A stretch of DNA of 64,000 nucleotides from Bacteroides sp. (GCA_031554285.1 JAVBVL010000019.1:9768-73767), one strand, 5' to 3'. Shown: positions 1 through 24,306, numbered from the stretch's first letter. Notes: generated by a model from the sequence alone, not told the origin. Made by a program: numbers and translations.

Positions 1-1079
1 GGAACGAAGGTTTGGTATTCCTTCAGGCACAACTCAATAGCGGCAATCTGTTGGTTGAGTTCCTCCGGAGTGTGGGCTTTGGTTTCCGTTAATACGGCAG
101 TCAGACCTTCACCGGTGGGGTCGTTTACCGATGCCAATGATTTCTTATCAAGCAATTCTGCTCCATGTACCACTAAACTGCCGTCGCTGTTTTGCAACTG
201 CTTCATGGCAACCACTGCCCGGCAGGCTTCCTTGATGTCGCTAAAATAGAGCATGGCACTTGCCTTGCAGGGGTAGTCATATTCGGTTTTCATGGTAACC
301 TCTGAGAGGAATGCCAGTGTTCCTTCCGAACCTACCATCAAGTGGGCAATAATATCGAAGGGGTCAGTAAATTGTACTAAAGGGAGGATGTTGAGTCCGG
401 TTACATTCTTAATCGAGTATTTATGACGGATGCGGTTGGCTAACAATGTGTTGTTTTGTACCTCGTCACGCAAGGCTTCAATCCGTTTCAGCATCTTGCT
501 ATGGGTAAAGGCAAACGCCTTGCGACTCATTTCGTTACCGGTATCCAATATCGTACCATCGGACAGAATAATACGAACAGAAACCAACATCTTGTCGCTG
601 TTGGCATGGGTACCACAGTTCATTCCCGAGGCATTATTCATCACGATTCCACCCACCATGGCCGACTTTACCGAGGCGGGGTCCGGGGCAAACTTGCGTC
701 CAAAAGGTTGCAGAATTTCATTCACCCGTTGCCCGATAAGCCCGGGCTGGAGGGTAATCTGTTCGCGGTCGTCTGAGATGCGGTACTTTTCCCAATGCTT
801 CCCGGCTACAATCAGTATAGAGTCACTAATGGCTTGTCCCGACAAACTGGTTCCCGCTGCGCGGAAGGTTACCGGCAGTTGATAACGGTGAGCAATCATC
901 AGGAGGTTAGCTACCTCCTTCTCACCATCCGAGCGGACTACAATCTGAGGAATCAGACGGTAGAATCCTGCATCTGTACCCCAAGCTAACCGGCGAAGGT
1001 CGTCGGTATAGATTCGCTCTTGCGGAACAAATGAGGCTATCTCCCGCAGAAACGCCACATAGCTTTCTCTCTTATTCAT
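1..1079 (-). CDS. FAD-binding/(Fe-S)-binding oxidoreductase, D-lactate dehydrogenase (Dld-II/GlcD-like); 3' end runs off the window
   Basis: Not in the ORF track. Manual translation from ATG 1079 gives MNKRESYVAFLREIASFVPQERIYTDDLRRLAWGTDAGFYRLIP...TFRAAGTSLSGQ...PDPAS...GGIVMNNASG...GSEGTLAF (FAD_binding_4 motifs), open to the window edge. Start overlaps the upstream stop (TAATG). Confidence 0.85.
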   Translation of the reverse strand, partial: MNKRESYVAFLREIASFVPQERIYTDDLRRLAWGTDAGFYRLIPQIVVRSDGEKEVANLLMIAHRYQLPVTFRAAGTSLSGQAISDSILIVAGKHWEKYRISDDREQITLQPGLIGQRVNEILQPFGRKFAPDPASVKSAMVGGIVMNNASGMNCGTHANSDKMLVSVRIILSDGTILDTGNEMSRKAFAFTHSKMLKRIEALRDEVQNNTLLANRIRHKYSIKNVTGLNILPLVQFTDPFDIIAHLMVGSEGTLAFLSEVTMKTEYDYPCKASAMLYFSDIKEACRAVVAMKQLQNSDGSLVVHGAELLDKKSLASVNDPTGEGLTAVLTETKAHTPEELNQQIAAIELCLKEYQTFV

Positions 1080-2323
1080 TACTTGTACAAATAATATTTC
1101 TTGGACAATTTACGAAAACTGTCCACATCTTTATACCAATACTCGCGAATATCTTCCCAACGGTTACGTTGGCTGAAGCGTTCGCGTATCTCTTTGGAAC
1201 CACTTACTAAATCGAACATCCTGAACCGCCCTTTATCGGCATGGTCAAATACGGCACGGTCCGGATATAGCACGGCTAACTCTTGCATTACCAGGAACTG
1301 AATTTCACTTAAAGCAGCCTTCTGATAATCCATAATATGCACTTGTACGCCTTGCAAGAGTTCTCCTTTCCCAACCGAGTAGAACGGTTTGAGATACATA
1401 GGGCGGAAGATAATTCCCGGCAATTGTAAGTTGTTGAGGCGATTGGCCAGTTCTTCTGCTTTAATCCAGGGTGCAGCAAACATTTGGAACGGAATGGTAT
1501 ATCCTACTCCGATAGATAGATATCCCAATTCGCCCAAAATACCCGATACCGGATAGAAATACGAAGTGTGCGGATGTGGAATGTGTGGCGAAGAAGGAAC
1601 CCATTGCAAACCCGTTTGCGTGTAATCCATCTTGCGTTTCCATCCTTTCATCTTTACTACATGCAGGCTGCAGGTTTTACCCAACATCTGCTCGCCATTG
1701 AGCATCAATGCTAACTCTCCACAAGTGAGGCCGTAAAGGTACGGGATTTTAAACTGACTGACAAATGAAAAAAAGCCATCTTCTACTAAATTTCCTTCAA
1801 TCTTTAGTCCCCCTACCGGATTGGGGCGGTCTAAAACAATAAATTCTTTTCCGTTCTCGGCAGCCGCTTCCATGGCTACTCCCATGGTACTGATGTAAGT
1901 AAAGGAACGGCAGCCAATGTCCTGAATGTCGTACACCAATACGTCAATACCTTCCAGCATCTCCGGGGTAGGTTTACGAGTCTTTCCGTACAGGGAGAAG
2001 ACGGGTAACCCGGTAGCCGGGTCGTTGCCGCTTTCTATCTTATCGCCGGCATGCACATCACCGCGCACACCATGTTCAGGTCCATACAGAGCCACCAGGT
2101 TTACATTGGGAGCTTCGTGCAGGATGTCGATGGTCGACTTCAGTTGATTATCCACTCCGGTGGGATTGGTTATCAGCCCCACGCGTTTTCCTTCCAGACA
2201 CTTGAATTGCTGCTCTTTCAGCACCTCGATACCTGTCTTTATGGTAATTTTCTGTGCTTGCGCCATACCGGCACACAACACAACGCATATCAAACTTACA
2301 ATAAATCTGTTATTCTTTTTCAT
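1079..2323 (-). CDS. namZ: Exo-beta-N-acetylmuramidase NamZ family (DUF1343/GH171), secreted
   Basis: Signal peptide; GLITNPTG, PEHG, YDIQDIGCRSFTY, LDRPNP and PSSPHIP motifs. Confidence 0.9.
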   Translation of the reverse strand: MKKNNRFIVSLICVVLCAGMAQAQKITIKTGIEVLKEQQFKCLEGKRVGLITNPTGVDNQLKSTIDILHEAPNVNLVALYGPEHGVRGDVHAGDKIESGNDPATGLPVFSLYGKTRKPTPEMLEGIDVLVYDIQDIGCRSFTYISTMGVAMEAAAENGKEFIVLDRPNPVGGLKIEGNLVEDGFFSFVSQFKIPYLYGLTCGELALMLNGEQMLGKTCSLHVVKMKGWKRKMDYTQTGLQWVPSSPHIPHPHTSYFYPVSGILGELGYLSIGVGYTIPFQMFAAPWIKAEELANRLNNLQLPGIIFRPMYLKPFYSVGKGELLQGVQVHIMDYQKAALSEIQFLVMQELAVLYPDRAVFDHADKGRFRMFDLVSGSKEIRERFSQRNRWEDIREYWYKDVDSFRKLSKKYYLYK

Positions 2324-3605
2324 GAGCTATTTCCTCCTTCTTTTTACCGTAGTTAGGATCAATCTTGATAAAGGCACATACCGTAATGGTAGCAGCACAG
2401 CACACCATTACCCAAATAAAGAAGTTCTCGTATCCTATTTGTTCTTGCAACCAACCGGCAGCCATACCCGGCAGCATCATACCCAATGCCATGAAAGCAG
2501 TACAGATGGCGTAGTGGGCCGTTTTGTGTTCGCCATCGGCATAATAAATCATGTAGAGCATATAAGCTGTAAATCCGAATCCGTAACCGAATTGCTCGAT
2601 GAATACGCAGATATTGATAATTATCAGACTCTCCGGTTGGGCATATCCCAGGTACACAAAGGTGAGGCAAGTAAGTGAAATGCTCCAAGCCATGGGCCAC
2701 AACCACCTTTGCAAACCACCTTTAGCTGCGCAGATACCGCCAATGATACCACCCAGTGTTAAACCAATGATACCAATGGTTCCGTATACCAATCCTACTT
2801 CGGCTGTGGAAAGGCCCAAACCTCCCTTCTCTATCGGGTCGAGCAGGAATGGATTAATCAATTTAACCAACTGAGCTTCCGGGAAACGGTAGAACAACAT
2901 AAACAGAATGGCAATACCGGCTTGCTTCTTTTTAAAGAAGGTGGCAAAGGTGGCAAAGAATTCCTTGAAAATGTTAGAGGCCGTTACATTCTCTACCGCC
3001 GATTTATCTGAGGCCGGCTTGGGCAGGATGTAAGTGTGATAGAGGAAGAATGCAATGAATAGTCCCGCCAGGATGTAGAAGGTAATACTCCACGCCATAG
3101 ATACCGACATGTTTTTCTCCAATCCACCCGCCAACATTACCAGCAATCCTTGTCCGGCAATGGTAGCTATACGATAAAAAGTACTACGAATACCTACATA
3201 CAATGCTTGTTCACGTACATCGAGTGCCAGCATGTAGAATCCGTCGGCGGCAATGTCGTGTGTGGCCGAACTGAAAGCCACCAACCAAAATACAGCCAGA
3301 GTGTACTGGAAGAACGAATCCATCGGGATGGTAAAGGCAATACCTGCCAACCCGGCACCTACCAATAACTGCATGGTAGTTACCCACCAGCGTTTGGTTT
3401 TTAACAAATCGACAAAGGGGCTCCAGAAAGGCTTGATTACCCAGGGAAGGTACAGCCAGCTGGTATATAATGCAATGTCTGTGTTCGATATGCCCAATCG
3501 TTTGTACATAATCACAGAGATAGTCATAACGGCTACATAGGGTAGCCCTTGTGCAAAATAGAGAGTGGGTATCCAGGCCCAGGGTGATGTTTTCCCGTTT
3601 TTCAT
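2310..3605 (-). CDS. ampG: AmpG-family muropeptide MFS permease
   Basis: LYFAQGLP, PWVIKPFWSPFVD and SATHDIAADG motifs; about 12 hydrophobic segments. Confidence 0.85.
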   Translation of the reverse strand: MKNGKTSPWAWIPTLYFAQGLPYVAVMTISVIMYKRLGISNTDIALYTSWLYLPWVIKPFWSPFVDLLKTKRWWVTTMQLLVGAGLAGIAFTIPMDSFFQYTLAVFWLVAFSSATHDIAADGFYMLALDVREQALYVGIRSTFYRIATIAGQGLLVMLAGGLEKNMSVSMAWSITFYILAGLFIAFFLYHTYILPKPASDKSAVENVTASNIFKEFFATFATFFKKKQAGIAILFMLFYRFPEAQLVKLINPFLLDPIEKGGLGLSTAEVGLVYGTIGIIGLTLGGIIGGICAAKGGLQRWLWPMAWSISLTCLTFVYLGYAQPESLIIINICVFIEQFGYGFGFTAYMLYMIYYADGEHKTAHYAICTAFMALGMMLPGMAAGWLQEQIGYENFFIWVMVCCAATITVCAFIKIDPNYGKKKEEIAHEKE

Positions 3606-3617
3606 GGTATGTATGCT

Positions 3618-4925
3618 TTAATAGAGTTTATCAATGGTTGCTCCAATGTAATAGTGCAACAGAATGTCGTTGTATAAGTAGCCTTGTTCGCCCATGACGG
3701 CAGCACCAATCTGGCACAGTCCTACTCCGTGTCCCCATCCGGCTCCGGTGAGGATAAATTTTCCGGGTATTCCATTTACAACATCTGCTTTGTCTACTAC
3801 AAAGCCTGAACTGTATAGGTGCGAGGTAGATAGAGTGCGACGTATTTCCAACTCTTTTCCGATGGTCATGGTACGCAGGGTACCAACAATCTTTAATTTG
3901 GTTAACCGTCCGGAAGTTCCCCGTGCTACCGGTATCAGGTCGATAATCTGTCCGTAGTCGATACCCGACCGTTGCAGGATTAACTGCGAAAGTTCCTCCT
4001 GTGTGTATTCTACCTTCCAACGATAGAAATGAGTTGTTTCCTGGTCGTAGTTATTAAGCACCTGTCCCAGAATCTTCTTATCCGTGGTGTTACAAAATGC
4101 TTCGGGTGAGGTACGTATCCACCGTTCGGCTTCCGTTTCGATGCGTAAGTCGGGTAGGGTGGTTTCCGTTTTGCTGTCCCGTTGTTTGCAGAGGTAAGGG
4201 TGCGCCTCTTCCTCCCAACAATATTGAAATTCTTCAAAGGCTCCGCCGCAGCATTTGGAGAAGCGGGCATCGCATATCTGTCCGTTGCTCATCAGTACTT
4301 GTCCGCGGGTAGCTTCAATGGCTTGGCGCACAATAGCTGTCGATGCACGGGTGATGCCTTGGTAACGTTGACAATGGTCGTCGGCGCAAACGTCAAAATG
4401 GGTATGATCCTCCCGGTCGTACCAGCGTGTTAGTTCGTCTTCAGTTTGTGTGCAGGTTGTATAAGTTTGTTCGGCTACTTTCTTGTTTTTCTGAATCTGC
4501 GCCAGGAGCCAACTGCGGGAAATAACGGCATGTGCCTGGAGTAATTCAAGGGAAGCGGTAGCGCTCATCTCCGAAGAGATTACACTGGTGAGGTAATCCT
4601 CAATACCCACCACGTTGACAGCGGTAAGTTGTTCTCTCTCTACAATCAGCTTCAGTGCTCCCTGGAAGCGCTGGTCTTCTTTACGTTCCCAATGGAAATT
4701 AATCCCGATGATAACATCCTTTAGCTCGAATGCTCCTGCAACCGGGTCGGCAGGCTCCCACAATAGTTCGTTGTACAGGCTTCCATTCCAAAGAATCTTA
4801 CCTGCCTGGTACGATACTGTTTGCAAACCCTGGTATTCTTTCCCGTCTGCATGGTAGGGAGTCAACAGGACAAACTCAAGTTGCGTTCCCGATAGGATAC
4901 CTACATGTACGTTTGGCTCTTTCAT
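3618..4925 (-). CDS. SpoIID/LytB domain protein (lytic transglycosylase-like)
   Basis: EDYLTSVISSEM, LQAHAVISRS, CADDHCQRY and GAGWGHGVGLCQIGA...ILLHYY motifs. Confidence 0.88.
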   Translation of the reverse strand: MKEPNVHVGILSGTQLEFVLLTPYHADGKEYQGLQTVSYQAGKILWNGSLYNELLWEPADPVAGAFELKDVIIGINFHWERKEDQRFQGALKLIVEREQLTAVNVVGIEDYLTSVISSEMSATASLELLQAHAVISRSWLLAQIQKNKKVAEQTYTTCTQTEDELTRWYDREDHTHFDVCADDHCQRYQGITRASTAIVRQAIEATRGQVLMSNGQICDARFSKCCGGAFEEFQYCWEEEAHPYLCKQRDSKTETTLPDLRIETEAERWIRTSPEAFCNTTDKKILGQVLNNYDQETTHFYRWKVEYTQEELSQLILQRSGIDYGQIIDLIPVARGTSGRLTKLKIVGTLRTMTIGKELEIRRTLSTSHLYSSGFVVDKADVVNGIPGKFILTGAGWGHGVGLCQIGAAVMGEQGYLYNDILLHYYIGATIDKLY

Positions 4926-4928
4926 ATA

Positions 4929-5870
4929 TTATATCTTTACACTATCAATAATGCGCTGTACCAGCTGTCTGAATTCAATGGGGTCTAAGCAAACCTCCTG
5001 TAAGATACCGGCTATATTCCGGGCAGTCAGTTTCTCAAAATCCTCTTCGCGGGGAGTAATAAATACCCCTCCCATATCTACTGATGCCGGACTGATTAAG
5101 ATGTTGGCATCTCCTTCGGCTGTATAGCAAGAGGGGCGGTGTTTGCTGCGCGGAAAAATACAGACAATCCATTTCCCGTTATCGTCTACCCAGGCAATCA
5201 GATTCATCATAGGTTCTTCTTCACCGGGTTTTAGCTCCATAGCGTTATACACCATGTCGAACAATTCCGTAGCATCCCGCTTGTCGCACGCTTCAATCAC
5301 TAATGCAGGGCGGTTGGGATCGTCTAAGTATAACAAGTTGGCGGTATGGTACGTAAACACTTGGGTAGCCTTGTTCTTCCAATCCTGCTCAATGGGCATG
5401 AACCCTTTGTTGCCTGCCTGGAAATGGGCATGGTCGGGAGCCGAAGCACCACAACGCGGACCGTTGTAGAATATCACGTATTCATCGGCAAATGCGGCTA
5501 GGTCGAGCATATCTGCCATCCGGTTTTGTATCCGTTGGTCGGTATGCTGTACTTCCGGTATGGTGAGGTGTTTGGGAAATATCGGAAACGGATTAACCAG
5601 GATGGTGTAATGTCCGCCGAAAGGTATTCCCTTTTGCTCTGCCGGAAGATGTGCGGCACACAGGAAGCATTTACGCTCCCGGATAGACTGGCTGTCTACT
5701 TTCGCTGCCGAAGAGACCATGCGTGCCGGGTTAAACTGTACCTTGTAACGGGTACCGTCTACGTTCAGCTCTTTCACTTTTACTTGTTGCAAGGCGAGGT
5801 AATTGTCGCTTGCCAGTTTCCAGGAACTGAGTTGCTCGTCCAGTAATTGCTGTATGTTTGCTGCTGACAT
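4929..5870 (-). CDS. DUF4922 family protein (HIT-superfamily nucleotidyltransferase/phosphorylase-like)
   Basis: VQFNPAR, CFLC, LVNPFPI and FYNGPRCGASAPDHAHFQ (HxHxQ) motifs. Confidence 0.8.
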   Translation of the reverse strand: MSAANIQQLLDEQLSSWKLASDNYLALQQVKVKELNVDGTRYKVQFNPARMVSSAAKVDSQSIRERKCFLCAAHLPAEQKGIPFGGHYTILVNPFPIFPKHLTIPEVQHTDQRIQNRMADMLDLAAFADEYVIFYNGPRCGASAPDHAHFQAGNKGFMPIEQDWKNKATQVFTYHTANLLYLDDPNRPALVIEACDKRDATELFDMVYNAMELKPGEEEPMMNLIAWVDDNGKWIVCIFPRSKHRPSCYTAEGDANILISPASVDMGGVFITPREEDFEKLTARNIAGILQEVCLDPIEFRQLVQRIIDSVKI

Positions 5871-5875
5871 AGTTG

Positions 5876-7336
5876 TTATTTCTTATTCATGGCTACACGT
5901 GCCTGTAATTCCCAGGTACGGATGCGGTCTTTGTACAGGTTATGTCCGTTCATTTTCACAATGTCCAGTGAAGCATCCGAGTTGTCGTCCCAACGGCGGC
6001 ACAGGTAAACCACCTCATACACACGTCCAATCTGGAAGCGACGCGAGATGTTCAATCCCAAAGCATAGTCTTCACCGTAGCTGGTGTTGGGCACCTTTAC
6101 ATCACGCAATACAGGGGTGTAGAATGCACGGGGAGCACCCAACCCATTAATGCGCAGTGCATTGTTACGTCCGTTTTCAGGAGTCCACTCTTTGTGGTCA
6201 ATGATACCCGGGGCAATCATGTTCATCATGAAGTCGGTCATCATATATGTACCCACCACCATGGCGCAATTCTGTTCGTAGAAGGCGTTCACCATGGTCT
6301 GCAAGGTCTTTTCGTCTTTGTACACATCGTCACTGTCTAACTGTATGGCAAACTTACCGCATTTTTCGTGGTGCACGCCCATGTTCCAGCATCCGCCAAT
6401 ACCCAGGTCGTTACGGTTGGGGATAATATGAATCAACCGTTCATCGGCTGCATACTCGCGGATAGCTTCTGTAGTTCCATCAGTAGAGTGGTTGTCGATG
6501 ATAATCAGGTTGAACTTGAAATTGGTTTTTTGTTTGAGAACCGAGCTGATAGCGTCGCGAATGGTACGAATACGGTTGCGAACGGGAATAATCACCGATG
6601 CTTCATACTCAAAGTTGCCTGCTTCAAAAGCAATCTTCTCAAATTCCGGCGCCAGGTATCCGCCAATCTCTTTCAGGTGTTCGGTACAGGCCTGTTCCAT
6701 TTCTATTTGTACGCCCCGGTTCTTCGGGTCTACGTAATCGAATATCTTTTCGCCGCTCTTGCGGTTGTCATTCTCAATTTCAGAGTACAGATACTCGTTT
6801 ATGTGTACCAATGCTTCTTTTTGCGAGAGTTTCAAACGCAGGTCGTACAGTCCGGCAAACTGATAATTGGCTTTCATGCGGGCGGCTGCCTCTTTCAAAG
6901 CAGATGCTTTAAAGAACAGTACCGAGCCGAAGTTAAAGTCGTCACGAAGGCTGCCAAATTGGTAATCAATCACCGGAGCATTCTTTTGTTCGCCGGCTAT
7001 CACTTGATAATGGTCGGCATATACCATGCCGGCATTAGAGTCTTCAGCCAAGCGTGCCATGCGTTCCAACGCAAAATAGCTCATGCTCAAGGTGGTGTAT
7101 TTAGTGTACAGCAAAGTGTATGTAGCATCTGAGTGTGTGGCAACAGCCTGTATGGCAGCACTGCAATTCAAGGCGGGTACTACAAGCACTTCGCATCCCG
7201 GCAGGGCGGGAACTCCCGGTTGGGTAGCCAATAAATAAATTTGATCTACCAAGCCCGATGATTGCAGGCCATTGATGGTAGCAGTAGCCTGAGCAGCATC
7301 TGCGTAAGGAATGAAGCAATTGATTTTGTTTTTCAT
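5876..7336 (-). CDS. Family 2 glycosyltransferase with an N-terminal degenerate GT-like domain
   Basis: SVIIPVRN, IIIDNHSTDGT, QLDSDD and GEDY motifs in the C-terminal half. Confidence 0.85.
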   Translation of the reverse strand: MKNKINCFIPYADAAQATATINGLQSSGLVDQIYLLATQPGVPALPGCEVLVVPALNCSAAIQAVATHSDATYTLLYTKYTTLSMSYFALERMARLAEDSNAGMVYADHYQVIAGEQKNAPVIDYQFGSLRDDFNFGSVLFFKASALKEAAARMKANYQFAGLYDLRLKLSQKEALVHINEYLYSEIENDNRKSGEKIFDYVDPKNRGVQIEMEQACTEHLKEIGGYLAPEFEKIAFEAGNFEYEASVIIPVRNRIRTIRDAISSVLKQKTNFKFNLIIIDNHSTDGTTEAIREYAADERLIHIIPNRNDLGIGGCWNMGVHHEKCGKFAIQLDSDDVYKDEKTLQTMVNAFYEQNCAMVVGTYMMTDFMMNMIAPGIIDHKEWTPENGRNNALRINGLGAPRAFYTPVLRDVKVPNTSYGEDYALGLNISRRFQIGRVYEVVYLCRRWDDNSDASLDIVKMNGHNLYKDRIRTWELQARVAMNKK

Positions 7337-7342
7337 GACTAT

Positions 7343-9199: not shown

Positions 9200-9217
9200 G
9201 GTGTTTCTATTAACTGG

Positions 9218-12200: not shown

Positions 12201-12265
12201 GCTGCCGTCCGGGGGAGCAGACAAGCAACGGCTAAAGCTGATAAAAGCGAATAGATAACCTTCAT
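9218..12265 (-). CDS. Large secreted 'xanthan lyase'-type protein: Amidase_3-like catalytic motifs, CBM/golvesin-like insert and FN3 domain
   Basis: Signal peptide; IWQSHG, QTVEDL, AFHTDAG and LLELLSHQN motifs; ADAVK CBM-like end; IELSW...FKVTALNKGGES FN3. Confidence 0.7.
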   Translation of the reverse strand: MKVIYSLLSALAVACLLPRTAAAQSLSPEVRQEIGKYLTTTARQDLAIGRINIDSVAVDGKKLVLFANANCGYIPFREENVAQIYEGVRALLPAELANYQLQIRTDRHAIEELIPLALRSKKDKKAETFSNRVDKPLVTRLSVPYTPTNGLLNRHLAIWQSHGFYYEAKLTRWEWQRARIFQTVEDLYTQSYVLPFVVPMLENAGANVLIPRERDTQSAEVVVDNDGCLNNRSVYSELPGDRNWQTGSKPGFAHLRAQYIDFENPFKEGTFRQIETIKKGNESLAEWIPAIPAKGSYAVYVSYQTVENSADDALYTVYHNGGTSQFKVNQQMGGGTWIYLGHFTFEAGCNAGGKVTLSNRSDKAGRIITADAVKIGGGYGNIARRISQEGATENVKSSDAVASVQRSIPQADYPYETSGYPRFTEGARYWMQWAGVPDSIYSDSHGKNDYTDDYKARGKWVNYLAGGSPVNPTEEGLHIPMDMSLAFHTDAGTTLNDSIIGTLGIFHTAVDNGVYANGTSRYAARDLTDLIQSNIVRDIRTLYEPKWSRRGMWNQSYFEARVPKVPAMLLELLSHQNFADMRYGLDPRFRFTVSRAIYKGILQFVCSQYKMDYVVQPLPVDHMSLGFVGENEIELSWQPVEDPLEPTAKTEQYVVYTRIGEGAFDNGRVVKGTQYRTVIPAGVVCSFKVTALNKGGESFPSEILSAGKAFNSKGTVLVVNGFDRISAPADFDAQADSIAGFLDQLDYGVPYKEDISFIGSMKEFRRKVPWMDDDASGFGDSYATHETMVIAGNTFDYPAVHGSAILKTGYSFTSCSDEAVESKQVSLNQYKYVDLILGKECQTKVGHGKIHPLEYKTFSAPMQEAVTAYCQAGGNFFVSGAYVASDLWDNHLTTSQEADRKFATDVLKYKWRVGQAAKTGQVKSVASPFTSITGTYSYFSELNPDGYIVESPDAIEPTAPEAATIIRYSENNLSAGVAYRGNYKTCILGFPFESVRTACEREALMKGILQFFDEK

Positions 12266-12277
12266 TATTGTGTTAAG

Positions 12278-13729: not shown

Positions 13730-13747
13730 ACTAACAACAACTAAATA

Positions 13748-14914
13748 TTATTCTTGATAAAGCAGGTACGGTTTGCGTTGCACGAGGAACTTTTCCACAT
13801 CCCCTTTCCACATCGCTTTGATTTCGTCGGCCTCTTTGCCTTCCTCAATCATCTTACGTACATAATCAACGCCAATTAACCGTTCAAAAAACGGGCGGAA
13901 GAAATGGTCGTCCATGTTCATGTTGCGGTACGCATCGATTACATAGCTCAAATCTACACCTTTTTTCCAGATTTCTTCGTCACTAAGTCCGCTTAAATTT
14001 ACGCCGTGGCACAATTTGTTAAGCTGCGGCGGATTTTTGGCTCCCGGAATACTCCGTGGGGTAAAACTGTAACTGTATCCTTTCATATTGGGGTGTCCGT
14101 ACACCTGAAACGGAAGCGAAGTACCTCTCCCCAGACTAACGGGGGTTGCCTCAAAGAGGCAGGTAGACGGGTAGAGGTAAATCGCTTTCATATCAGGCAA
14201 ATTAGGAGAGGGGGGTATGGGTAAACGATACATAGTTTGATGCGTGTAGTTGCGGCAGGGGATAACTGTCAGGTCGCATACCCGCGAACCCGGCAGCCAA
14301 TGCTCGCCGTTAATCATCCGGGCTAATTCGCCCAGGGTCATGCCATGTACCACGGGGATGGGCAACCAACCCACGCCCGATTTGTATTTCATATCTAATA
14401 TAGGTCCGTCTACGTAATGCCCGTTGGGATTGGGACGGTCCAGAATCAATACCTTCCGGTTGAATTCCGCGCAAGCATCCATTAGCCGGGCCATAGATAT
14501 ATAATAGGTGTAGAAACGCAAGCCCACGTCCTGAATGTCTACCACCAAAATATCAAACTTGCGCATGGAGGCTTCACTCGGCTTACCGGCTACCCCATCG
14601 TATAACGACAAGATGGGTACGCCCGTTTTCTTATCTGTCGAACTCTTCACGTGTTCACCTGCATCTGCATCGCCACGGAATCCATGCTCGGGTGAGAAGA
14701 TGGCCACTACGTTCAGTTTGTTTTCAACCAGTACGTCCACCAGGTGCTTGTCGCCTATCATTCCCGTGTGGTTCGAAAATACGGCCACCCGCTTATTCTT
14801 TAATATAGGGAAATACTCCGATGTCAGTTCGGCACCTACCTTGACAGGTTCCTTCTGCGCCATGCACAACAAGGTGAGGGTGAGTAGAAAAGTGATGGAA
14901 AATAGTCTTTTCAT
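13748..14914 (-). CDS. namZ: Second exo-beta-N-acetylmuramidase NamZ family (DUF1343/GH171)
   Basis: Signal peptide; FSPEHGFRG, DIQDVGLRFYTY, LDRPNPNG, HGMTLGE, PPSPNL and SLGRGT motifs. Confidence 0.9.
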   Translation of the reverse strand: MKRLFSITFLLTLTLLCMAQKEPVKVGAELTSEYFPILKNKRVAVFSNHTGMIGDKHLVDVLVENKLNVVAIFSPEHGFRGDADAGEHVKSSTDKKTGVPILSLYDGVAGKPSEASMRKFDILVVDIQDVGLRFYTYYISMARLMDACAEFNRKVLILDRPNPNGHYVDGPILDMKYKSGVGWLPIPVVHGMTLGELARMINGEHWLPGSRVCDLTVIPCRNYTHQTMYRLPIPPSPNLPDMKAIYLYPSTCLFEATPVSLGRGTSLPFQVYGHPNMKGYSYSFTPRSIPGAKNPPQLNKLCHGVNLSGLSDEEIWKKGVDLSYVIDAYRNMNMDDHFFRPFFERLIGVDYVRKMIEEGKEADEIKAMWKGDVEKFLVQRKPYLLYQE

Positions 14915-14947
14915 ACGTATTATCTTTTAAGGAGAAGTAAACAATAG

Positions 14948-14955
14948 CAAAGATA
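14948..14955 (-). promoter_or_regulatory. Bacteroidetes -7 promoter element (TATCTTTG) for the leftward muramidase operon
   Basis: CAAAGATA on + strand reads TAnnTTTG on -, ~35 nt upstream of the namZ start. Confidence 0.6.
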
Positions 14956-15042
14956 GGATTAATTTTAAAATCAGAAACATCTATTTAGATATATTTAGGA
15001 TTATAATCAATAATTTGCAAATGGGGTGTCCAATGTATTCCT

Positions 15043-15408
15043 TAATATCCTCCATGAGCATAAAATGTGATTTAATTCGCCATTCGCCATCTTTTTGGAC
15101 TTATCTATTTGATTACCTGATAAATAATCGATGGCGAATCCCTTTTTGATTCGCCATTGATTCGCCATTTCTGAGGGTATTCGCCATTGTTATCAATAAA
15201 CTATAATAAGTTTGTTACATCAGATGAAACCAATGGTTCATGGGCTAAACCGTTGGTTTCAAGAGCAAAACCGGTAGTTTCAAGAGCGAAACTACCGGTA
15301 TCAGCAAGGAAACTTACTGGTTTCTGTCCATGAAACTTTTAGTTTTAGTAGTTGGAACAAAAGGTTTCCGGGCATGGAACTATTAGTTTCAGCTAATGAA
15401 ACTAATAG
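15043..15408. repeat. Dispersed intergenic element, copy 1 (ATTCGCCAT block plus GAAAC-N5-GTTTC array)
   Basis: Colinear with 55083-55463; five direct and one inverted ATTCGCCAT; 8-9 units of ~21-22 bp. Confidence 0.9.
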
Positions 15409-15510
15409 ATTGCCGGTGGGACTTTGACCGAAAGAGGTTGTGGCTTTCCGATAAAGTAATTGGAAATTTTATTTTTAGTGCTAAAAATGCGTAAAGCTCA
15501 AAAAATATAA

Positions 15511-15518
15511 TATATTTG
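15511..15518 (+). promoter_or_regulatory. -7 promoter element (TATATTTG) for the kinase gene
   Basis: TAnnTTTG 25 nt upstream of ATG 15543. Confidence 0.6.
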
Positions 15519-15542
15519 TAACCAAATCAAAAAAAATGCGAA

Positions 15543-16391
15543 ATGAAACTGATTGCAGAAAGTGGTTCTACGCGAACTGAATGGGTTTTGGTGGAAGATG
15601 ATCACCTTATACAACGGGTGTTCACGGAAGGGTTAAACCCTTTCTTTCAGACTCGTAGAGAAGTTAGCCGGAGCGTACGCCTGGGATTACCCGAGACTTT
15701 TTTCAAAAGGAAACTGGAACAAGTTCATTTCTATGGTGCCGGTTGTAGCTCACATGAGAAGAAAAACATGATGGGCGCTTCGCTCGTGGCGCAATTTAAA
15801 ACCCCCATCCAGGTAGAGAGCGATTTGCTGGCGGCTGCCCGTGGTTTGTTTAAATGTGAGCCCGGAATAGCCTGTATCCTGGGTACAGGCTCCAATTCAT
15901 GCTTTTACGATGGTAAAATTATTGCGCGTAATGTACGTGCTGCCGGTTATATTTTGGGCGACGAAGGCAGTGGCGCCGCGCTGGGGAAACTCTTCCTGGC
16001 GGATGTGCTGAAGGGTCTTGCCCCCAAGCATCTTTCGAACGCTTTCTTCGAGAAATTCCGTATTACCCCCAATGATGTAATGGAGTCGGTGTACAACCGT
16101 CCTTTCCCCAACCGCTTCCTGTCTACCATCTCTTATTTTCTTGCCGACTACTTGGACGATGAATATGTGTATCGCATGCTAATCAATAACTTACGCAACT
16201 TCTTTAACCGTAATGTATGCCAATACGACTATAAAAACTACCCCATTCGCTTCGTAGGTTCGGTGGCGTATGCATACGCCGATGTGTTGCGCCGCGTAGC
16301 GGGTGAATTCGACGTGGTGTTAGATAAAATTGAAGAAACTCCCATGGATGGTTTGATTGAATTCCATGCCATGAACATTGAAGAGCACTAA
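15543..16391 (+). CDS. BadF/BcrAD-type ASKHA sugar kinase (GlcNAc/MurNAc kinase-like)
   Basis: IAESGSTRTEW, GLNPF, FYGAGC, SDLLAAAR, ILGTGSNS, LGDEGSG and FVGSVA motifs. Confidence 0.8.
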   Translation: MKLIAESGSTRTEWVLVEDDHLIQRVFTEGLNPFFQTRREVSRSVRLGLPETFFKRKLEQVHFYGAGCSSHEKKNMMGASLVAQFKTPIQVESDLLAAARGLFKCEPGIACILGTGSNSCFYDGKIIARNVRAAGYILGDEGSGAALGKLFLADVLKGLAPKHLSNAFFEKFRITPNDVMESVYNRPFPNRFLSTISYFLADYLDDEYVYRMLINNLRNFFNRNVCQYDYKNYPIRFVGSVAYAYADVLRRVAGEFDVVLDKIEETPMDGLIEFHAMNIEEH

Positions 16392-16514
16392 AAATCTCCT
16401 TTTATATCTCTCTTTTTAGATGAAATGCCTTACGGATTTCCGCAGGCAATTGTGAATATATAAATATAAATCTAAAATATATTAAATAAATGTTCTCGAT
16501 ATTGAATTAATATA

Positions 16515-16522
16515 TATATTTG
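16515..16522 (+). promoter_or_regulatory. -7 promoter element (TATATTTG) upstream of susC, implying a ~200-nt leader
   Basis: TAnnTTTG in an AT-rich intergenic region. Confidence 0.5.
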
Positions 16523-16724
16523 CTATTGGTTGATTTCCGACCAGTAAATCACCGCCCTATGTACCCCGTTTTTTTAGTGCCTCTTATATAATAAGGAATA
16601 TAGTTCTAACTTTTAATATACTGATGTATGAAAACAATCCTTTATCCCCCATAAACAGTGTGCTGTTTACGCCCCCTATTGTGTTTTAGAAATTCTATTC
16701 AATCAATTAACTAATTAATCTATT

Positions 16725-19700
16725 ATGAGTGAAAATCACAAAAAACGAGGACTGATTCAAAATAAGATCCTCGCAGCAGTAGCAATCACCGCCCTATTTG
16801 TAGGCACAGGTGATGTGATGGCTAATCAAACAGCTTCCGGTGAAGCGCAGGTAATGGCTACTCAGCAACAAGCGCAATCGGTAAGTGGTATGGTAGTCGA
16901 TGTGAATGGCGATCCGGTTATCGGAGCAAGTATCCTTGAGAAAGGATCCACCAATGGTACTATTACCGATGTAGACGGTAAGTTTACATTGAATGCAAAG
17001 GCAGGAGCTACAATAACAGTTAGTTTCGTAGGCTTTCTTCCTCAGGATGTAAAAGCCGGCAGAAACTTAAGAGTGGTACTGAGAGAAGACAGTGAATTAT
17101 TGGACGAAGTAGTAGTTGTAGGGTATGGTGTTCAAAAGAAAGCCAACTTAACAGGTGCGGTATCTTCTATCGATGTAAGCAAAACGTTGGACGCTCGTCC
17201 GCAATCGGATGTAACCAAAGCGTTGCAAGGAGCTGTTCCCGGTTTAACTATTTTGAATACCAACGGTGCTATCGACTCAAAACCTACCATTACCATTCGT
17301 GGTACAGGTACGTTGAGTAACAGTGCAAAAAGTAATCCGTTAATCGTGGTAGATGGTGTTCCGATGGACGACATCACTTTCTTAAATACGCAGGATATTG
17401 AGAATATCTCGGTGTTGAAGGATGCTGCTTCTACTTCAATTTATGGTACCCGTGCTGCGTTCGGTGTATTGTTAATTACTACCAAGTCGGCTAAGAAGGC
17501 TGAAAAGGTAACTGTTAACTATACCAACAATTTTGCATGGGAAACACCTACTGTTCTTCCTGACTACCCCGATGTGCCTACTCAGATTAAAGCGTTGAGT
17601 GCGGCTAACAAACGTGCCGGTTTGGACAATGAATTGTTCGGTATGTGGTTGGATGACATGCTTCCTATGGCTGAAGACTGGAAGAAAAGACATAACGGTG
17701 AGAAGGCTGGTTATCGTGAAATGGTTTTGGGCGATGACTTCAGTCTGACTAAAGATGGTGTAGGAATGTTTTATGCAGACTGGGATGTGGTGAATATTAT
17801 GTTCCGTAAATGGAAACCTTCACAGAGCCACAATGTTTCGATTCAAGGTTCAAGCGGAAAAACTTCTTATTTCATGTCGTTAGGTTATAACCACGACGAA
17901 GGAGTTATGACATTTAATCCGGATAAACAGAATAAGTATACGGCTACTGTGAATCTTAAAACCAATGTAACTGATTGGTTAGAAGTTGGCGGACGTTTTA
18001 ACTACAGCGATAAGCACTACGTAGGTCCTAATACAAGACGTTCTACCTATACTTACTTATGGCGTTGGGGTAGCTTCTTTGGCCCGTACGGAACTTATAA
18101 AGGTGAGGATATGAAAAACGATATCGCTTACCGTAAGCAAGCTGGTGATTATGACAAGACCGATGCATATGCCCGTTTAGGTGCTTATTTGAAGGCGACT
18201 TTGGCAAAAGGGTTAACTTTGAATGTAGACTACACATACAATGTGTTGAATACAGACCTGAAGCAAGCCGGTCTTCCGGTATACGGATGGAACTCTTGGG
18301 GTGGAAATATCAGTGGTGACCCGGGATATTTGGAAACAATGGCTAAATCATATGTTCAGCAAACTTCGGAAAGAGATAACTCTTACGCATTCAATATCTA
18401 TGCTAATTATGCATTGACTTTGGCCAAAAAACATAACTTCAATGTAATGGTAGGTGCTAATGCTGAAGAGGGTGAATTCTCATCTCATTGGTCAAACCGT
18501 GCTACTTTGTTAGACCCGAACATGCCGGAATTTAACCTGGCTACAGGCGACCAAACCGTAGGAGGTTCTCATAACGAGTGGGGTGCTGCCGGTTACTTCG
18601 GACGTATCAACTATGATTACAATGGTATCTGGTTGTTGGAATTGAATGGACGTTATGACGGATCTTCTAAATTCCCGGCAAGCAACCGTTGGGCTTTCTT
18701 CCCTTCAGGTTCTGTAGGCTATAGAATCAGTGAAGCGGCTTATTTTGCTCCGTTGAAAAAAATTGTAAACAATGCTAAACTTCGCGCTTCTTATGGTGAA
18801 ATTGGTAACCAGGCAGTAGGTAGCAATATGTTTATTTCTACTTTGTCAAAGGTAACCACTCCTAACTGGCTGGATGCAAGTGGAGTGAGAGTAGTGTCTT
18901 ATAACATGCCTTCATTAGTTTCTTCTGTCCTTAAATGGGAGCGTATTCAAACGTTGGATTTTGGTGGAGACTTTGGCTTCTTAAATAATGAACTGAACGT
19001 ATCGTTTGACTGGTACCAACGTACAACAAAAGATATGTTAGCTCCCGGCCAAACATTGCCTCAGGTATTGGGTGCCGATGCTCCGAAAATCAATGCCGGT
19101 ACGTTGAGAACTCGTGGTTGGGAATTATCAGTTGATTGGCGTCATCGCTTCAATCAGGTGAATTTCTACGCCAATGCAAGTATTGGTGACTTCCAAACTG
19201 TAATTACTAAATGGGATAACGATAATAGACTTATCACCACTGACTCTTACTATTCAGGTAAGGTATATGGAGATATTTGGGGCTTCGAAACAGAAAGATA
19301 CTTTACTAAGGACGACTTTACTTATGATGCTGCAGGCAAGGTAACAGGATACAAAACTGGTGTCGCTTCTCAGGCTGGTTTGAATCAAGGTTCTTTCGTG
19401 TTTGGTCCTGGTGATATTAAGTTTAAAGATTTGGATGGTAATGGTGTCATAGATGGTGGTAAAGGTACTGATGAAGACCATGGTGACTTGAAGGTGATTG
19501 GTAATACAACTCCTCGCTACCAGTATTCATTCCGTTTAGGTGCCGATTGGAAAGGCTTCGATATTGATATGTTCTTCCAAGGCGTAGGTAAACGTGATGT
19601 GTGGACACAGAGTGCGTTTGTAATGCCGATGATGCGTGGTGCCGATGCAATCTATGCTAATCAAACAGATTATTGGACAGAAGAAAACCCCAACCCCGAT

Positions 19701-20072
19701 GCTTACTTCCCACGCATGTTCCCGGGTAATGCTGCAAAAGGAACTATCTCCGTATTGGATCGCGGTAATCATAACTTCTATCCGCAAACTAAATACTTGG
19801 TGAATATGGCATACTTGCGCTTCAAGAACCTGACAGTAGGTTATACCTTACCTAAGGTATTGAGCCGTAAAGCATACATGGAAAAAGTGCGCGTATACTT
19901 CAGTGCTAATAACTTGTGTGAGTTAATCAACAAGAGCAATGCTCCTTTGGATCCGGAAGTCAATACAAGTGCTGGTACTACTGCTACTACAGATGACTAT
20001 GGTAATGGTACTTGGGGACGTACTGATCCGATGTTCCGTACAATATCATTTGGTTTGCAAGTTACTTTCTAA
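16725..20072 (+). CDS. susC: SusC/RagA TonB-dependent outer membrane transporter
   Basis: CarboxypepD_reg-like N-terminus, LDEVVVVGYG, NLTGAVS, PLIVVDG, ISVLKDAASTSIYG and RYDGSSKF motifs; ends FGLQVTF. Confidence 0.97.
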   Translation: MSENHKKRGLIQNKILAAVAITALFVGTGDVMANQTASGEAQVMATQQQAQSVSGMVVDVNGDPVIGASILEKGSTNGTITDVDGKFTLNAKAGATITVSFVGFLPQDVKAGRNLRVVLREDSELLDEVVVVGYGVQKKANLTGAVSSIDVSKTLDARPQSDVTKALQGAVPGLTILNTNGAIDSKPTITIRGTGTLSNSAKSNPLIVVDGVPMDDITFLNTQDIENISVLKDAASTSIYGTRAAFGVLLITTKSAKKAEKVTVNYTNNFAWETPTVLPDYPDVPTQIKALSAANKRAGLDNELFGMWLDDMLPMAEDWKKRHNGEKAGYREMVLGDDFSLTKDGVGMFYADWDVVNIMFRKWKPSQSHNVSIQGSSGKTSYFMSLGYNHDEGVMTFNPDKQNKYTATVNLKTNVTDWLEVGGRFNYSDKHYVGPNTRRSTYTYLWRWGSFFGPYGTYKGEDMKNDIAYRKQAGDYDKTDAYARLGAYLKATLAKGLTLNVDYTYNVLNTDLKQAGLPVYGWNSWGGNISGDPGYLETMAKSYVQQTSERDNSYAFNIYANYALTLAKKHNFNVMVGANAEEGEFSSHWSNRATLLDPNMPEFNLATGDQTVGGSHNEWGAAGYFGRINYDYNGIWLLELNGRYDGSSKFPASNRWAFFPSGSVGYRISEAAYFAPLKKIVNNAKLRASYGEIGNQAVGSNMFISTLSKVTTPNWLDASGVRVVSYNMPSLVSSVLKWERIQTLDFGGDFGFLNNELNVSFDWYQRTTKDMLAPGQTLPQVLGADAPKINAGTLRTRGWELSVDWRHRFNQVNFYANASIGDFQTVITKWDNDNRLITTDSYYSGKVYGDIWGFETERYFTKDDFTYDAAGKVTGYKTGVASQAGLNQGSFVFGPGDIKFKDLDGNGVIDGGKGTDEDHGDLKVIGNTTPRYQYSFRLGADWKGFDIDMFFQGVGKRDVWTQSAFVMPMMRGADAIYANQTDYWTEENPNPDAYFPRMFPGNAAKGTISVLDRGNHNFYPQTKYLVNMAYLRFKNLTVGYTLPKVLSRKAYMEKVRVYFSANNLCELINKSNAPLDPEVNTSAGTTATTDDYGNGTWGRTDPMFRTISFGLQVTF

Positions 20073-20098
20073 TAGGTCCTAACTATATGAATACGAAT

Positions 20099-21781
20099 AT
20101 GAAAAAGATTAATATATTATGCGTAGTGTCGCTGATGACGCTCTTCGGTTGCGACAGTATTTTGGACAAAGGGCCATTGGATACGTTTTCCAATGATAAC
20201 TTTTGGACGAGCGAAAACAATGTGAATGGGTACGCCAATAAATTCTACGATAACTTCTTAGGATATGGCAATGCTGGTTCAACGGGTGATTTCTATTTCA
20301 GGACATTGTCTGACGACCAGGTGGGAAACTCCTTTTCTAAATGGGATCCTAGTATACCGGCATCAAGTACTACTTGGAAAAATGGTTGGGTTGAAGTAAG
20401 ACGTGCCAATATTATGTTAGAGAAGATTGATGGAATTGCTTCAATGAGTGAAGCTGCTAAGTCACACTGGAAAGGCTTTGCCCGGTTAATGCGCGCATGG
20501 GAGTATTATAAACTCACACGCACTTATGGTGATTTGCCGTGGATAGATAAGGCACTTGATATTACCGATGACGGATATATTTATGGAAGCCGTGAAAGTC
20601 GTGATAAGGTTATGGATAACGTATTGGACGATTTGAATTATGCAACCTCGAATATGTATGAGAATACATCAAAGATTACTTTCAACCGGGCTGTTGCTAA
20701 TGCAATGAAAGCTGAGATTTGCTTGTATGAAGGGACTTTTCGTAAGTATCGTAAAGCTGCCGACGGACAACCGGCGCCGGATGCTGCAGGAGCAACAAAG
20801 TTTTTGACTGCTTCTAAAGACGCTTGTACTTACATCATGGGTAAATCATTTAAACTGAATGACTCTTATCAGGGTAATTATAACTCAACAAACTTGAATA
20901 CGAACCCTGAAATGATTTTCTACAAACCGTATAATGCTGCTACTCTTATGCACTCTACTGTTGCTTATGTTAGTAGTTCTACGCAACATAGCGGTATTTC
21001 AAAGGATGCATTTGACTCTTACCTGTTTACAGACGGAAAGCCTTTGGCGTTGACAACTAAAGATAAGGACGATGCAGCTAAGCTAATAGATGACAAGATG
21101 TCTATAGCGGACATGTTAAGTGTGCGTGATAAGAGACTTTCTCAAACGATTGACCCGGTTCTTTGCTATGTAGGCAGAAACTATATCCGTTCGGGTAGTT
21201 TGGCATTTGGATCTTCGTCTGGATACGGTATTCAGAAGTATGATAATATCACTATGCCCATCGATAATAGAGTGAACACAACAAAGAACTATACTCATGC
21301 ACCGCTTTTCTGGTTGTCGGTTATTTATTTGGATTATGCTGAAGCTTGTGCTGAATTGGGTTCAATTACACAGGCCGATTTGGATAATACAATAAATAAG
21401 TTGAAGACTCGTGCTGGTTTACCTGCTTTAACGGTGGCTGTAGGTTATGATGACCCTGCTAATAACCATGAAGTTAGCTCTTTGATTTGGGAAATCCGTC
21501 GCGAACGTCGTACAGAATTGATGTGTGACAACTGGAACAGATACTGGGACATGGTTCGCTGGCATCAATTAGACAAACTGGATTCTGGTAAATATCCCAA
21601 TATCTTGTTAGGTGCTAATGTGGTGAACGATCCTACATCGAAAGTTACTAAAACTGGTAATTACATTGATGGTTCATTAGGAAATACTCGTACTTTCGAT
21701 AAGAAATACTATTTGGATCCGATACCTAGCGGTCAGATTACATTGAATGAAAACTTGAAACCCCAAAATCCGGGTTGGTAA
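20099..21781 (+). CDS. susD: SusD/RagB lipoprotein (alternative start 20087)
   Basis: Lipobox LFGC-D; YGDLPW, LDYAEA, IRRERRTEL, RYWDMVRW and PIP...QNPGW motifs; follows susC. Confidence 0.95.
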   Translation: MKKINILCVVSLMTLFGCDSILDKGPLDTFSNDNFWTSENNVNGYANKFYDNFLGYGNAGSTGDFYFRTLSDDQVGNSFSKWDPSIPASSTTWKNGWVEVRRANIMLEKIDGIASMSEAAKSHWKGFARLMRAWEYYKLTRTYGDLPWIDKALDITDDGYIYGSRESRDKVMDNVLDDLNYATSNMYENTSKITFNRAVANAMKAEICLYEGTFRKYRKAADGQPAPDAAGATKFLTASKDACTYIMGKSFKLNDSYQGNYNSTNLNTNPEMIFYKPYNAATLMHSTVAYVSSSTQHSGISKDAFDSYLFTDGKPLALTTKDKDDAAKLIDDKMSIADMLSVRDKRLSQTIDPVLCYVGRNYIRSGSLAFGSSSGYGIQKYDNITMPIDNRVNTTKNYTHAPLFWLSVIYLDYAEACAELGSITQADLDNTINKLKTRAGLPALTVAVGYDDPANNHEVSSLIWEIRRERRTELMCDNWNRYWDMVRWHQLDKLDSGKYPNILLGANVVNDPTSKVTKTGNYIDGSLGNTRTFDKKYYLDPIPSGQITLNENLKPQNPGW

Positions 21782-21808
21782 TAATAGTGTCAATAGCTAT
21801 TAGTTTGG

Positions 21809-21839
21809 GAGGTGCCTCGTTGGAGGCACCTCTTTTTTT
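21809..21839 (+). terminator. Intrinsic terminator after susD
   Basis: GAGGTGCCTC-GTTG-GAGGCACCTC followed by T7. Confidence 0.9.
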
Positions 21840-21952
21840 ATAAATCAACCTAAAGGATATGATTCTTCGGATGTTTATAACAAAAAATCATAAACATTAG
21901 TGTTTGTTAAATTAGTTTTATACATTTGTGTTATCTTTAAATTAGAAAATAT

Positions 21953-24152: not shown

Positions 24153-24306
24153 CTTTTTTCTTTTGTTTTTGGATAAATAAAAATACATCAATCTATCTGC
24201 TATTCTGCCGAATAGTCGATATTCGGCTGCAAAATTAGAACAAATTGCCATATTATTGATAATTATTTCTTTATTTTTGCAGTGTATTCCCAAAACACCG
24301 AGAAGT

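Follow-up and report, generated by a model that had tools for sequence, protein, structure and literature searches.

The first 21,781 nucleotides of a 64,000-nucleotide stretch of Bacteroides sp. DNA (GCA_031554285.1 JAVBVL010000019.1:9768-73767, in our numbering G000:C101:9768-73767; hereafter the window) carry a locus that we interpret, with a probability of about 0.6, as a peptidoglycan-fragment utilization system, in which an enlarged operon of the Tannerella forsythia type is joined to an outer membrane importer of the SusC-SusD (SusCD) kind. The source is a metagenome-assembled genome of 131 contigs (2.65-Mb assembly, 80% complete). A role of the operon in the salvage and catabolism of N-acetylmuramic acid (MurNAc) and peptidoglycan fragments is well supported by orthology to characterized proteins. 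The SusCD pair, which we call type A, appears on balance to import fragments for this operon, and the locus probably serves for feeding on the peptidoglycan of other bacteria.

Gene Content and Layout of the Locus

Ten minus-strand open reading frames (ORFs) fill positions 3-14914, separated by 3-18 nucleotides or overlapping (by 1 nucleotide at dld/namZa and 14 nucleotides at namZa/ampG). ORF calling and searches of Pfam and NCBIfam, which provided the domain identities, agreed with a preliminary description of the sequence on the place and nature of all ten packed genes and on their divergence from a sugar kinase and susCD on the plus strand. The gap between susC and susD is 14 nucleotides. 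The features of the locus are as follows.

3-1079 (partial feature 1-1079), minus: 5′ part, cut by the window edge, of dld, encoding a D-lactate-dehydrogenase-like FAD-linked oxidase/4Fe-4S/CCG protein of 946 amino acids (FAD_binding_4; Pfam/NCBIfam and contig extension)
1079-2323, minus: namZa, NamZ1-type GH171 exo-muramidase with NamZ_N and NamZ_C domains (Pfam; PDB 4K05, BfNamZ1, E = 1.6e-239; signal peptide with A-Q site)
2310-3605, minus: ampG, AmpG-family major facilitator superfamily permease of the inner membrane (TIGR00901, 180 bits against a cut-off of 350; conserved position)
3618-4925, minus: SpoIID/LytB-domain protein lacking a signal peptide, predicted cytoplasmic (TIGR02669, 168 bits)
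4929-5870, minus: DUF4922 protein of HIT type, predicted cytoplasmic, resembling NDP-sugar phosphorylases/nucleotidyltransferases (Pfam DUF4922)
5876-7336, minus: two-domain family-2 glycosyltransferase (GT2), predicted cytoplasmic (Pfam Glycos_transf_2 at residues 247-369)
7343-9199, minus: secreted calcineurin-like phosphoesterase (Metallophos) with a PQQ/BamB-type β-propeller (Pfam/NCBIfam; signal peptide)
9218-12265, minus: secreted 1015-residue multidomain amidase-like protein, Golvesin_C and weak Amidase_3 (Pfam; AlphaFold2 model)
12278-13729, minus: sss, sodium:solute symporter with 12 transmembrane segments, paired with namZb (Pfam/NCBIfam)
13748-14914, minus: namZb, first gene of the operon, NamZ2-type GH171 exo-N-acetylmuramidase (Pfam; PDB 4JJA, BfNamZ2, E = 7e-220; signal peptide)
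14915-15542, no strand: divergent intergenic region of 628 bp, holding a repeat copy at 15043-15408
15543-16391, plus: K1058 ortholog, a BadF/BcrA-type ASKHA sugar kinase and MurK paralog (PDB 8oqk, E = 4.7e-136 over 277 residues)
16725-20072, plus: type-A SusC/RagA TonB-dependent transporter (TIGR04056, 841 bits; Plug and CarboxypepD_reg)
20087-21781, plus: type-A SusD-family surface lipoprotein (Pfam SusD_RagB, 114 bits; lipobox cysteine followed by acidic residues; clade A in the SusD tree)

The operon continues beyond the left edge of the window. On the same contig and strand the FAD protein gene is followed, with gaps of at most 46 nucleotides, by a murT-like gene for an HGSNAT/DUF5009 membrane protein, by murK for a second BadF-type kinase, by the SIS-domain gene murQ, which the preliminary description had proposed to look for there, and by a gene for a fusion of β-lactamase and GDSL domains (bla/GDSL). 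With these four genes the leftward unit totals 14 genes in ∼21 kb. RNA contigs bridge several of its gene junctions, where gaps within the window do not exceed 18 nucleotides; being contigs, they are no proof of one transcript.

Relation to the Scavenging Operon of T. forsythia

Tanf_08345-08385 of T. forsythia encodes, in order, a “xanthan lyase,” two proteins annotated “gtf,” LytB, AmpG, YbbC/NamZ1, MurT, MurK, and MurQ; it is transcribed as a single unit and activated by the hybrid two-component regulator GppX (PMC5388701). K1058 is encoded directly upstream (PMC10465942). The same core order is found here: amidase-like “xanthan lyase,” GT2, DUF4922, LytB, AmpG, NamZ1, MurT, MurK, MurQ. The kinase encoded to the left of the window matches T. 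forsythia MurK (PDB 8oqw, E = 2.5e-120), as the divergent kinase matches K1058. Judged by these sequence matches the leftward operon is an enlarged ortholog of Tanf_08345-08385, and the parallel drawn in the preliminary description with the T. forsythia gtf-lytB-ampG-namZ/murTKQ cluster is borne out by both gene order and orthology.

The dependence of T. forsythia on MurNAc is due to the absence of MurA and MurB (PMC7670621). Genes for both were detected in the present genome above curated cut-offs, and also in four relatives that bear the cluster. The host is therefore not a MurNAc auxotroph, and the locus would serve feeding and recycling rather than rescue from auxotrophy. Non-auxotrophy had earlier been argued from the presence of murF, ddl, and murI; the conclusion stands but the argument does not, because auxotrophy rests on MurA and MurB.

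Linkage of SusCD to the Operon in Relatives

A scan for SusD relatives gave 64 loci across the Bacteroidales, which were annotated by tblastn with 18 proteins of this locus (genomes and loci are given by our G and L numbers). Genomes of the same genus were the most informative. In G132, of the same genus, 17 genes lie on one strand in the order k1058-susC-susD-namZb-sss-amidase-phosphoesterase-gt2-duf4922-lytB-ampG-namZa-dld-murT-murK-murQ-bla. The SusCD pair between k1058 and namZb belongs to a second type, type B, whose SusC and SusD are 44 and 32% identical, respectively, to the pair in the window. G187 has a type-A k1058-susC-susD module directly ahead of a run from amidase to murQ, all on one strand, and at a second locus a type-B susCD divergent from namZb-sss-bla. 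L022 reads k1058-susC-susD-amidase-phosphoesterase-gt2-duf4922-lytB-ampG, and three Proteiniphilum loci (L007, L008, and L060) read susC-susD-amidase-gt2-lytB-ampG-namZ-murT, again on one strand. The arrangement of the window recurs in G186, from another genus; in G086 the cluster adjoins a type-B susCD and k1058; and in Bacteroides loci susC-susD is followed by namZb-sss-amidase-phosphoesterase, with a second-type k1058-susC-susD module divergent. The recurring unit is K1058-SusC-SusD, a MurNAc-binding cytoplasmic kinase heading an outer membrane importer of either type, and the order k1058-susC-susD is seen in G132, G187, L022, G086, and the Bacteroides loci.

In a tree of SusD sequences the 66 rows of type A formed a supported clade and the 20 of type B a group, with operon-linked members scattered in both. 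For type-B SusD queries the best match among the ∼20 SusD genes of the genome was the type-A SusD, and by this measure the two types are mutual closest relatives within that set. Because there are so few SusD genes in the 2.65-Mb assembly, and the one in the window is alone on its contig, adjacency to the operon by chance is unlikely.

Tandem type-A and type-B SusCD pairs also occur at loci lacking NamZ. Downstream of two such tandems is a gene for a secreted fusion of GH9 and CE4 (polysaccharide deacetylase) domains (L006:17130-21148 and L010:16681-20854). L006 also has an S13 D-Ala-D-Ala carboxypeptidase downstream, and M16 peptidases lie upstream of tandems of the L006/L010 type. These loci fit a wall-derived substrate without proving one, and they may represent another class of locus for wall fragments that employs these SusCD types.

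The 1015-Residue Amidase-like Protein

The 1015-residue protein is the ortholog of Tanf_08345. Its Pfam PF01520 match is weak (19.8 bits against a cut-off of 27) and confined to the C-terminal half, because a carbohydrate-binding module (CBM) of ∼165 residues, inserted at residues 215-379, splits the catalytic domain; an FN3 domain and a C-terminal domain resembling GH42 domain B follow. The “amidase-like” label given earlier is supported by comparison of the AlphaFold2 model (pLDDT 93.5), using VIA-align, with known structures. Residues 148-609 match N-acetylmuramoyl-L-alanine amidases of the Amidase_3 family with Z-scores of 16-19 (18.9 for 4rn7, 18.6 for Rv3717, 18.2 for AmiC2, and 17.1 for CwlV and AmiA) and a root mean square deviation of ∼2 Å, over alignments of 167-192 residues that include nearly the entire target domains. 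His-162, Glu-185, His-488, and Glu-571 are invariant in 76 homologs and occur in the order typical of the family; from this order and the fold they would correspond to the His/Glu/His zinc ligands and the catalytic Glu. All orthologs have a signal peptide.

We reject the annotation “xanthan lyase,” since only the inserted CBM matches the C terminus of a xanthan lyase (6f2p), the sole sequence match in the PDB. In the T. forsythia literature Tanf_08345 is described as of unknown function and the amidase of the pathway as unidentified (10.1101/2021.12.02.470905). The Tanf_08345 family is a strong candidate for this stem-peptide amidase. A distinct paralog lineage of the protein recurs across the order, and unlinked paralogs with a signal peptide and 44-45% identity are encoded at G000:C106:3896-6784 (L096) and G132:C2 ∼203457-206312 (L097).

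A Probable Cytoplasmic GT2, DUF4922, and LytB Unit

GT2 and DUF4922 are fused into one ORF of ∼805-811 residues in G186 and G157, which belong to two genera (L101:3804-6221 and G186:C2:174303-176738). In three other genera of the family GT2, DUF4922, and LytB form a single ORF of ∼1290 residues (G204, G173, and G166; L098:2940-6833, L099:2695-6588, and L100:2689-6537), and open-frame lengths suggest many further fusions. LytB lacks a signal peptide in 15 orthologs. The fusions and the signal-less LytB indicate that the three proteins act together in the cytoplasm. DUF4922 resembles HIT enzymes of the GDP-glucose phosphorylase type, and the corresponding atlas clusters are named GDP-D-glucose phosphorylase or GDPGP1_C.

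NamZ Enzymes, Carriers, and Accessory Enzymes

Both NamZ domains were detected by Pfam in NamZa and NamZb. NamZa is a close ortholog of BfNamZ1 (4K05) and groups with the disaccharide-releasing TfNamZ1; NamZb is an ortholog of BfNamZ2 (4JJA) and groups with the MurNAc-releasing TfNamZ2 (10.1101/2021.12.02.470905). Substrate preferences are taken from the T. forsythia enzymes, and sequence is a poor predictor of preference (10.1101/2021.12.02.470905).

The function of AmpG has been shown in T. forsythia (PMC5388701, PMC7670621). The permease encoded here scores 180 bits with TIGR00901, below the cut-off of 350, and its gene adjoins lytB and namZ in all related clusters; by analogy it would import GlcNAc-(anh)MurNAc, the disaccharide of N-acetylglucosamine (GlcNAc) and MurNAc or anhydro-MurNAc, across the inner membrane. 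The closest relatives of solved structure of the sodium:solute symporter (NIS, the sialic acid carrier SiaT, and SMCT1) carry anions or carboxylates, which fits MurNAc or lactate as its cargo. Its gene adjoins namZb in G132, G187, and Bacteroides also. With MurT there are three inner membrane carriers rather than the two routes envisaged in the preliminary description. The anhydro-MurNAc kinase AnmK was not found in this genome (80% complete), and the same search was also blank in a Bacteroides thetaiotaomicron control. AmpG substrates include GlcNAc-anhMurNAc, and another route for anhydro-MurNAc may exist.

The phosphoesterase-propeller gene is kept in G132, G187, G186, L022, and the Bacteroides loci, and a dld gene stands between namZa and murT in G132, G186, and G135. 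Signal peptides predict secretion of NamZa, NamZb, the amidase, the phosphoesterase, and the bla/GDSL fusion, whereas LytB, GT2, and DUF4922 are predicted to be cytoplasmic. SusD is the sole clear lipoprotein; the other secreted proteins carry A-Q sites of the signal peptidase I type. These predicted locations are consistent with the route proposed below.

Proposed Route

The steps of the route were graded as based on homology to characterized proteins, and are then marked so, or as inferred. Type-A SusD and SusC would bind and import soluble muropeptides or short glycan strands. In the periplasm the 1015-residue protein, which has the Amidase_3 fold in its model and invariant residues for a metal site, would strip stem peptides. 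There, more speculatively, the β-lactamase/GDSL fusion might trim peptides and remove O-acetyl groups, and the phosphoesterase-propeller protein might remove phosphodiester-linked substituents. By homology, NamZa would release GlcNAc-MurNAc disaccharides for AmpG. NamZb, an enzyme whose class is likewise assigned by homology, would release MurNAc for MurT and probably also for the symporter. In the cytoplasm MurK, and possibly K1058, would phosphorylate MurNAc, which MurQ would convert to GlcNAc-6-phosphate and D-lactate (by homology), and the FAD/Fe-S dehydrogenase may oxidize the D-lactate. GT2, DUF4922, and the signal-less SpoIID/LytB protein may act jointly on the disaccharide imported by AmpG.

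Evidence against a SusCD-linked System and Alternative Explanations

Several findings weigh against this interpretation. Of 23 type-A SusD loci whose flanks extend at least 9 kb in each direction, 7 have a gene of the cluster within 9 kb. In a sample of the order with one genome per family, nine genomes had the core cluster (amidase-gt2-duf4922-lytB-ampG), and eight of these clusters had no adjacent SusCD, the exception being that of G086, with type B and k1058. Type-A SusD is rare: clear full-length orthologs (44-65% identity) were found in 5 of 60 other genomes of the family (G160, G187, G186, G152, and G159). As 54 of 61 family genomes have the cluster, traced by its GT2 core marker, it works without this SusCD in most relatives. 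At the operon of T. forsythia, the studied model, no SusCD has been reported with K1058 (PMC10465942). The roles proposed for the phosphoesterase-propeller protein, the symporter, dld, and bla/GDSL are putative assignments by family and position. Finally, no regulator of the hybrid two-component system (HTCS), extracytoplasmic function (ECF)-sigma/anti-sigma, or SusR kinds was found beside the locus or where the G132, G187, and L022 loci begin, and neither a surface endo-muramidase nor a surface glycan-binding protein at this locus or those of relatives. SusC has no STN domain. When the genes heading related loci were screened for a conserved regulator, nothing came up but asd and genes for a LuxR-type response regulator (next to a transposase), an SPFH protein, and a DPP-IV peptidase, and none of these recurs.

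The finding that the preliminary description named as counting against it, susCD orthologs unlinked to the namZ operon in other genomes, was in part made. The linkage recurs in several rearranged arrangements and in several genera, which speaks for SusCD as importer for the operon; 16 of the 23 type-A loci and 8 of the 9 core clusters are nevertheless unlinked, and the linkage is restricted to certain lineages. From this distribution the core cluster is, as we read it, an old, near-universal salvage module, and the attachment of SusCD a lineage-restricted addition. Because nearly all genomes of the family have the cluster, its co-occurrence with SusD across genomes carries no information. An order-wide SusD search of 150 genomes, in which only nine candidates were scored per genome, returned no ortholog and says nothing on absence.

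The strongest competing explanation is that the operon does the housekeeping recycling of the cell's own peptidoglycan turnover, and that SusCD, brought next to it by rearrangement, has a different or loosely related cargo. The near-universal GT2 marker, present regardless of SusCD, the eight core clusters without SusCD nearby, the lack of a regulator or surface enzyme typical of a polysaccharide utilization locus (PUL), and the position of SusCD here on the opposite strand, behind a 628-bp spacer with a dispersed repeat, all speak for this explanation. Nevertheless, SusCD lies inside the operon and on its strand in G132, G187, L022, and Proteiniphilum, modules of either SusCD type begin with a conserved gene for the MurNAc-binding kinase K1058, and both sister SusCD types recur at the cluster. 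The need of the periplasmic exo-muramidases for peptide-free strands and the presence of a secreted amidase fit an exogenous substrate (10.1101/2021.12.02.470905), and the D-lactate-dehydrogenase-like gene points to catabolism. We consider own-wall recycling unlikely, at about one chance in four, well behind a peptidoglycan-fragment utilization system. Import by SusCD of another amino-sugar glycan (chitin or chitosan oligomers, host mucin-type glycans, or sialoglycans), with only downstream GlcNAc catabolism in common with the operon, is improbable: the invertebrate gut habitat, where chitin is common, the weak match of SusD to the sialic acid binder NanU (E = 2e-6, far below cut-off), and the unlinked type-A/B tandems followed by a GH9-CE4 fusion, possibly for chitosan-like substrates, speak for it, but genes for a chitinase, GH18, GH20, or sialidase are absent from the locus, SusCD is flanked on both sides by MurNAc-specific genes (K1058 kinase and NamZ), and the S13 D-Ala-D-Ala carboxypeptidase of L006 is a peptidoglycan-specific enzyme.

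Habitat and Expression

The stretch occurs in the metagenome of an invertebrate gut; a metatranscriptome from that study contains all of it at 100% identity. RNA contigs cover positions 2301-22300 entirely with zero differences; their depth is 692 at susC-susD against 54-138 over the operon, with DNA depth flat near 130. Contig depth is a poor measure of expression, and these data thus hint only weakly at transcription of the locus in the gut. RNA run X3 had no coverage of the locus.

Spacer Repeat and Flanking Genes

Positions 15043-15408 in the divergent spacer are a copy of a dispersed repeat of ∼360 bp, of which another copy lies at 55083-55463 and more than 30 (72-93% identity) occur across G000. 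One half of the repeat is rich in ATTCGCCAT and the other is a GAAAC/GTTTC array; there is no obvious transposase. The nonamer ATTCGCCAT occurs 219 times against ∼20 expected. At the spacer repeat DNA contigs break and summed depth rises about 6-fold. The dispersed copies led us to reject the idea that 15043-15408 is an operator in common with another locus, 40 kb distant.

After susD, on the same RNA contig, is a gene for a small outer membrane β-barrel protein (21953-22561, plus; TDE1717-like below cut-off), with a 62% identical paralog on contig C109; it is not conserved beside SusCD orthologs and was therefore excluded from the system. An ORF for aspartate-semialdehyde dehydrogenase follows (23145-24515, minus). 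It has a TTG start, and as ∼120 residues precede the first Pfam domain, the true start probably lies further downstream. In G132 the aspartate-semialdehyde dehydrogenase gene adjoins k1058 and so marks the edge of the rearranged segment.

Significance

A literature search found no publication that assigns a SusCD pair to peptidoglycan. A 2026 review only speculates, in a general way, that the TonB-dependent receptors and SusD-like lipoproteins arrayed on vesicles of T. forsythia serve to forage for fragments of the wall (PMC13764152). Neither the outer membrane step nor the stem-peptide amidase is settled in the published work on T. forsythia. Taken together, our results allow a wider reading that we offer tentatively, as a little short of an even bet. 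SusCD types A and B would be dedicated importers of peptidoglycan fragments, and theirs the first PUL-type locus for the bacterial cell wall; the cluster would also supply the amidase and the GT2/HIT-phosphorylase-like/SpoIID-like unit missing from the T. forsythia pathway. As part of the same tentative reading, the users would make their own wall and feed on dead bacteria, and the fused unit would process GlcNAc-MurNAc without NagZ or AnmK, possibly via a nucleotide-sugar intermediate.

Few pools of bacterial biomass in guts and sediments are as large as that of peptidoglycan, whose fragments act as potent immune signals. If the reading is true, a SusCD for wall fragments would extend the PUL concept to the bacterial cell wall, and candidate genes could be named for the control of muropeptide availability in communities of the gut and mouth. 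In the genetically tractable Bacteroides and Tannerella, both SusCD types, the amidase of the Tanf_08345 family, and the fused GT2-DUF4922-LytB protein would become testable targets.

Comparison with Known Systems

Like canonical Sus-like PULs of the Bacteroidota, the locus has a susC/susD pair together with periplasmic exo-glycosidases (GH171) and inner membrane sugar importers. Indeed, the adjacent susC-susD pair and the two linked GH171 NamZ genes, whose linkage recurs in other genera, are the PUL features present. Unlike canonical PULs, it lacks a linked regulator of the HTCS, ECF-sigma, or SusR kind, as well as a surface endo-enzyme and a surface glycan-binding protein, and the earlier wording “PUL-like” is apt for this reason. 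A further difference is the putative substrate, a peptide-crosslinked wall polymer, for which the locus has an amidase and peptide- and ester-trimming enzymes. NanOU of T. forsythia (PMC3969230) likewise combines a SusCD-type pair with a linked catabolic operon and has as its cargo a small acidic amino sugar in place of a large polysaccharide. The substrate class differs, and SusD here scores 27 bits against NanU, with a cut-off of 425 (E = 2e-6).

The cluster BF9343_0362-0369 of Bacteroides fragilis NCTC 9343 holds BfNamZ1 (4K05) and BfNamZ2 (4JJA) and has been likened to the TfnamZ1 operon (10.1101/2021.12.02.470905). As there, two NamZ paralogs bracket the cluster here, NamZa and NamZb being close orthologs of BfNamZ1 and BfNamZ2. 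The published mention of the B. fragilis cluster is a passing one, without SusCD or TonB; in the Bacteroides loci annotated here type-A SusCD lies upstream of namZb-sss-amidase and the type-B k1058-susC-susD module is divergent.

The closest comparison is with the T. forsythia operon, relative to which five genes are added here (namZb, sss, phosphoesterase-propeller, dld, and bla/GDSL). A SusCD pair is attached, none having been described for T. forsythia, the K1058-type kinase gene is divergent rather than on the same strand, and the host, unlike T. forsythia, has MurA and MurB. The second “gtf” of the T. forsythia operon corresponds to DUF4922. The two operons share the same core gene order, a K1058-type kinase at the head, and tight packing like that of a single unit.

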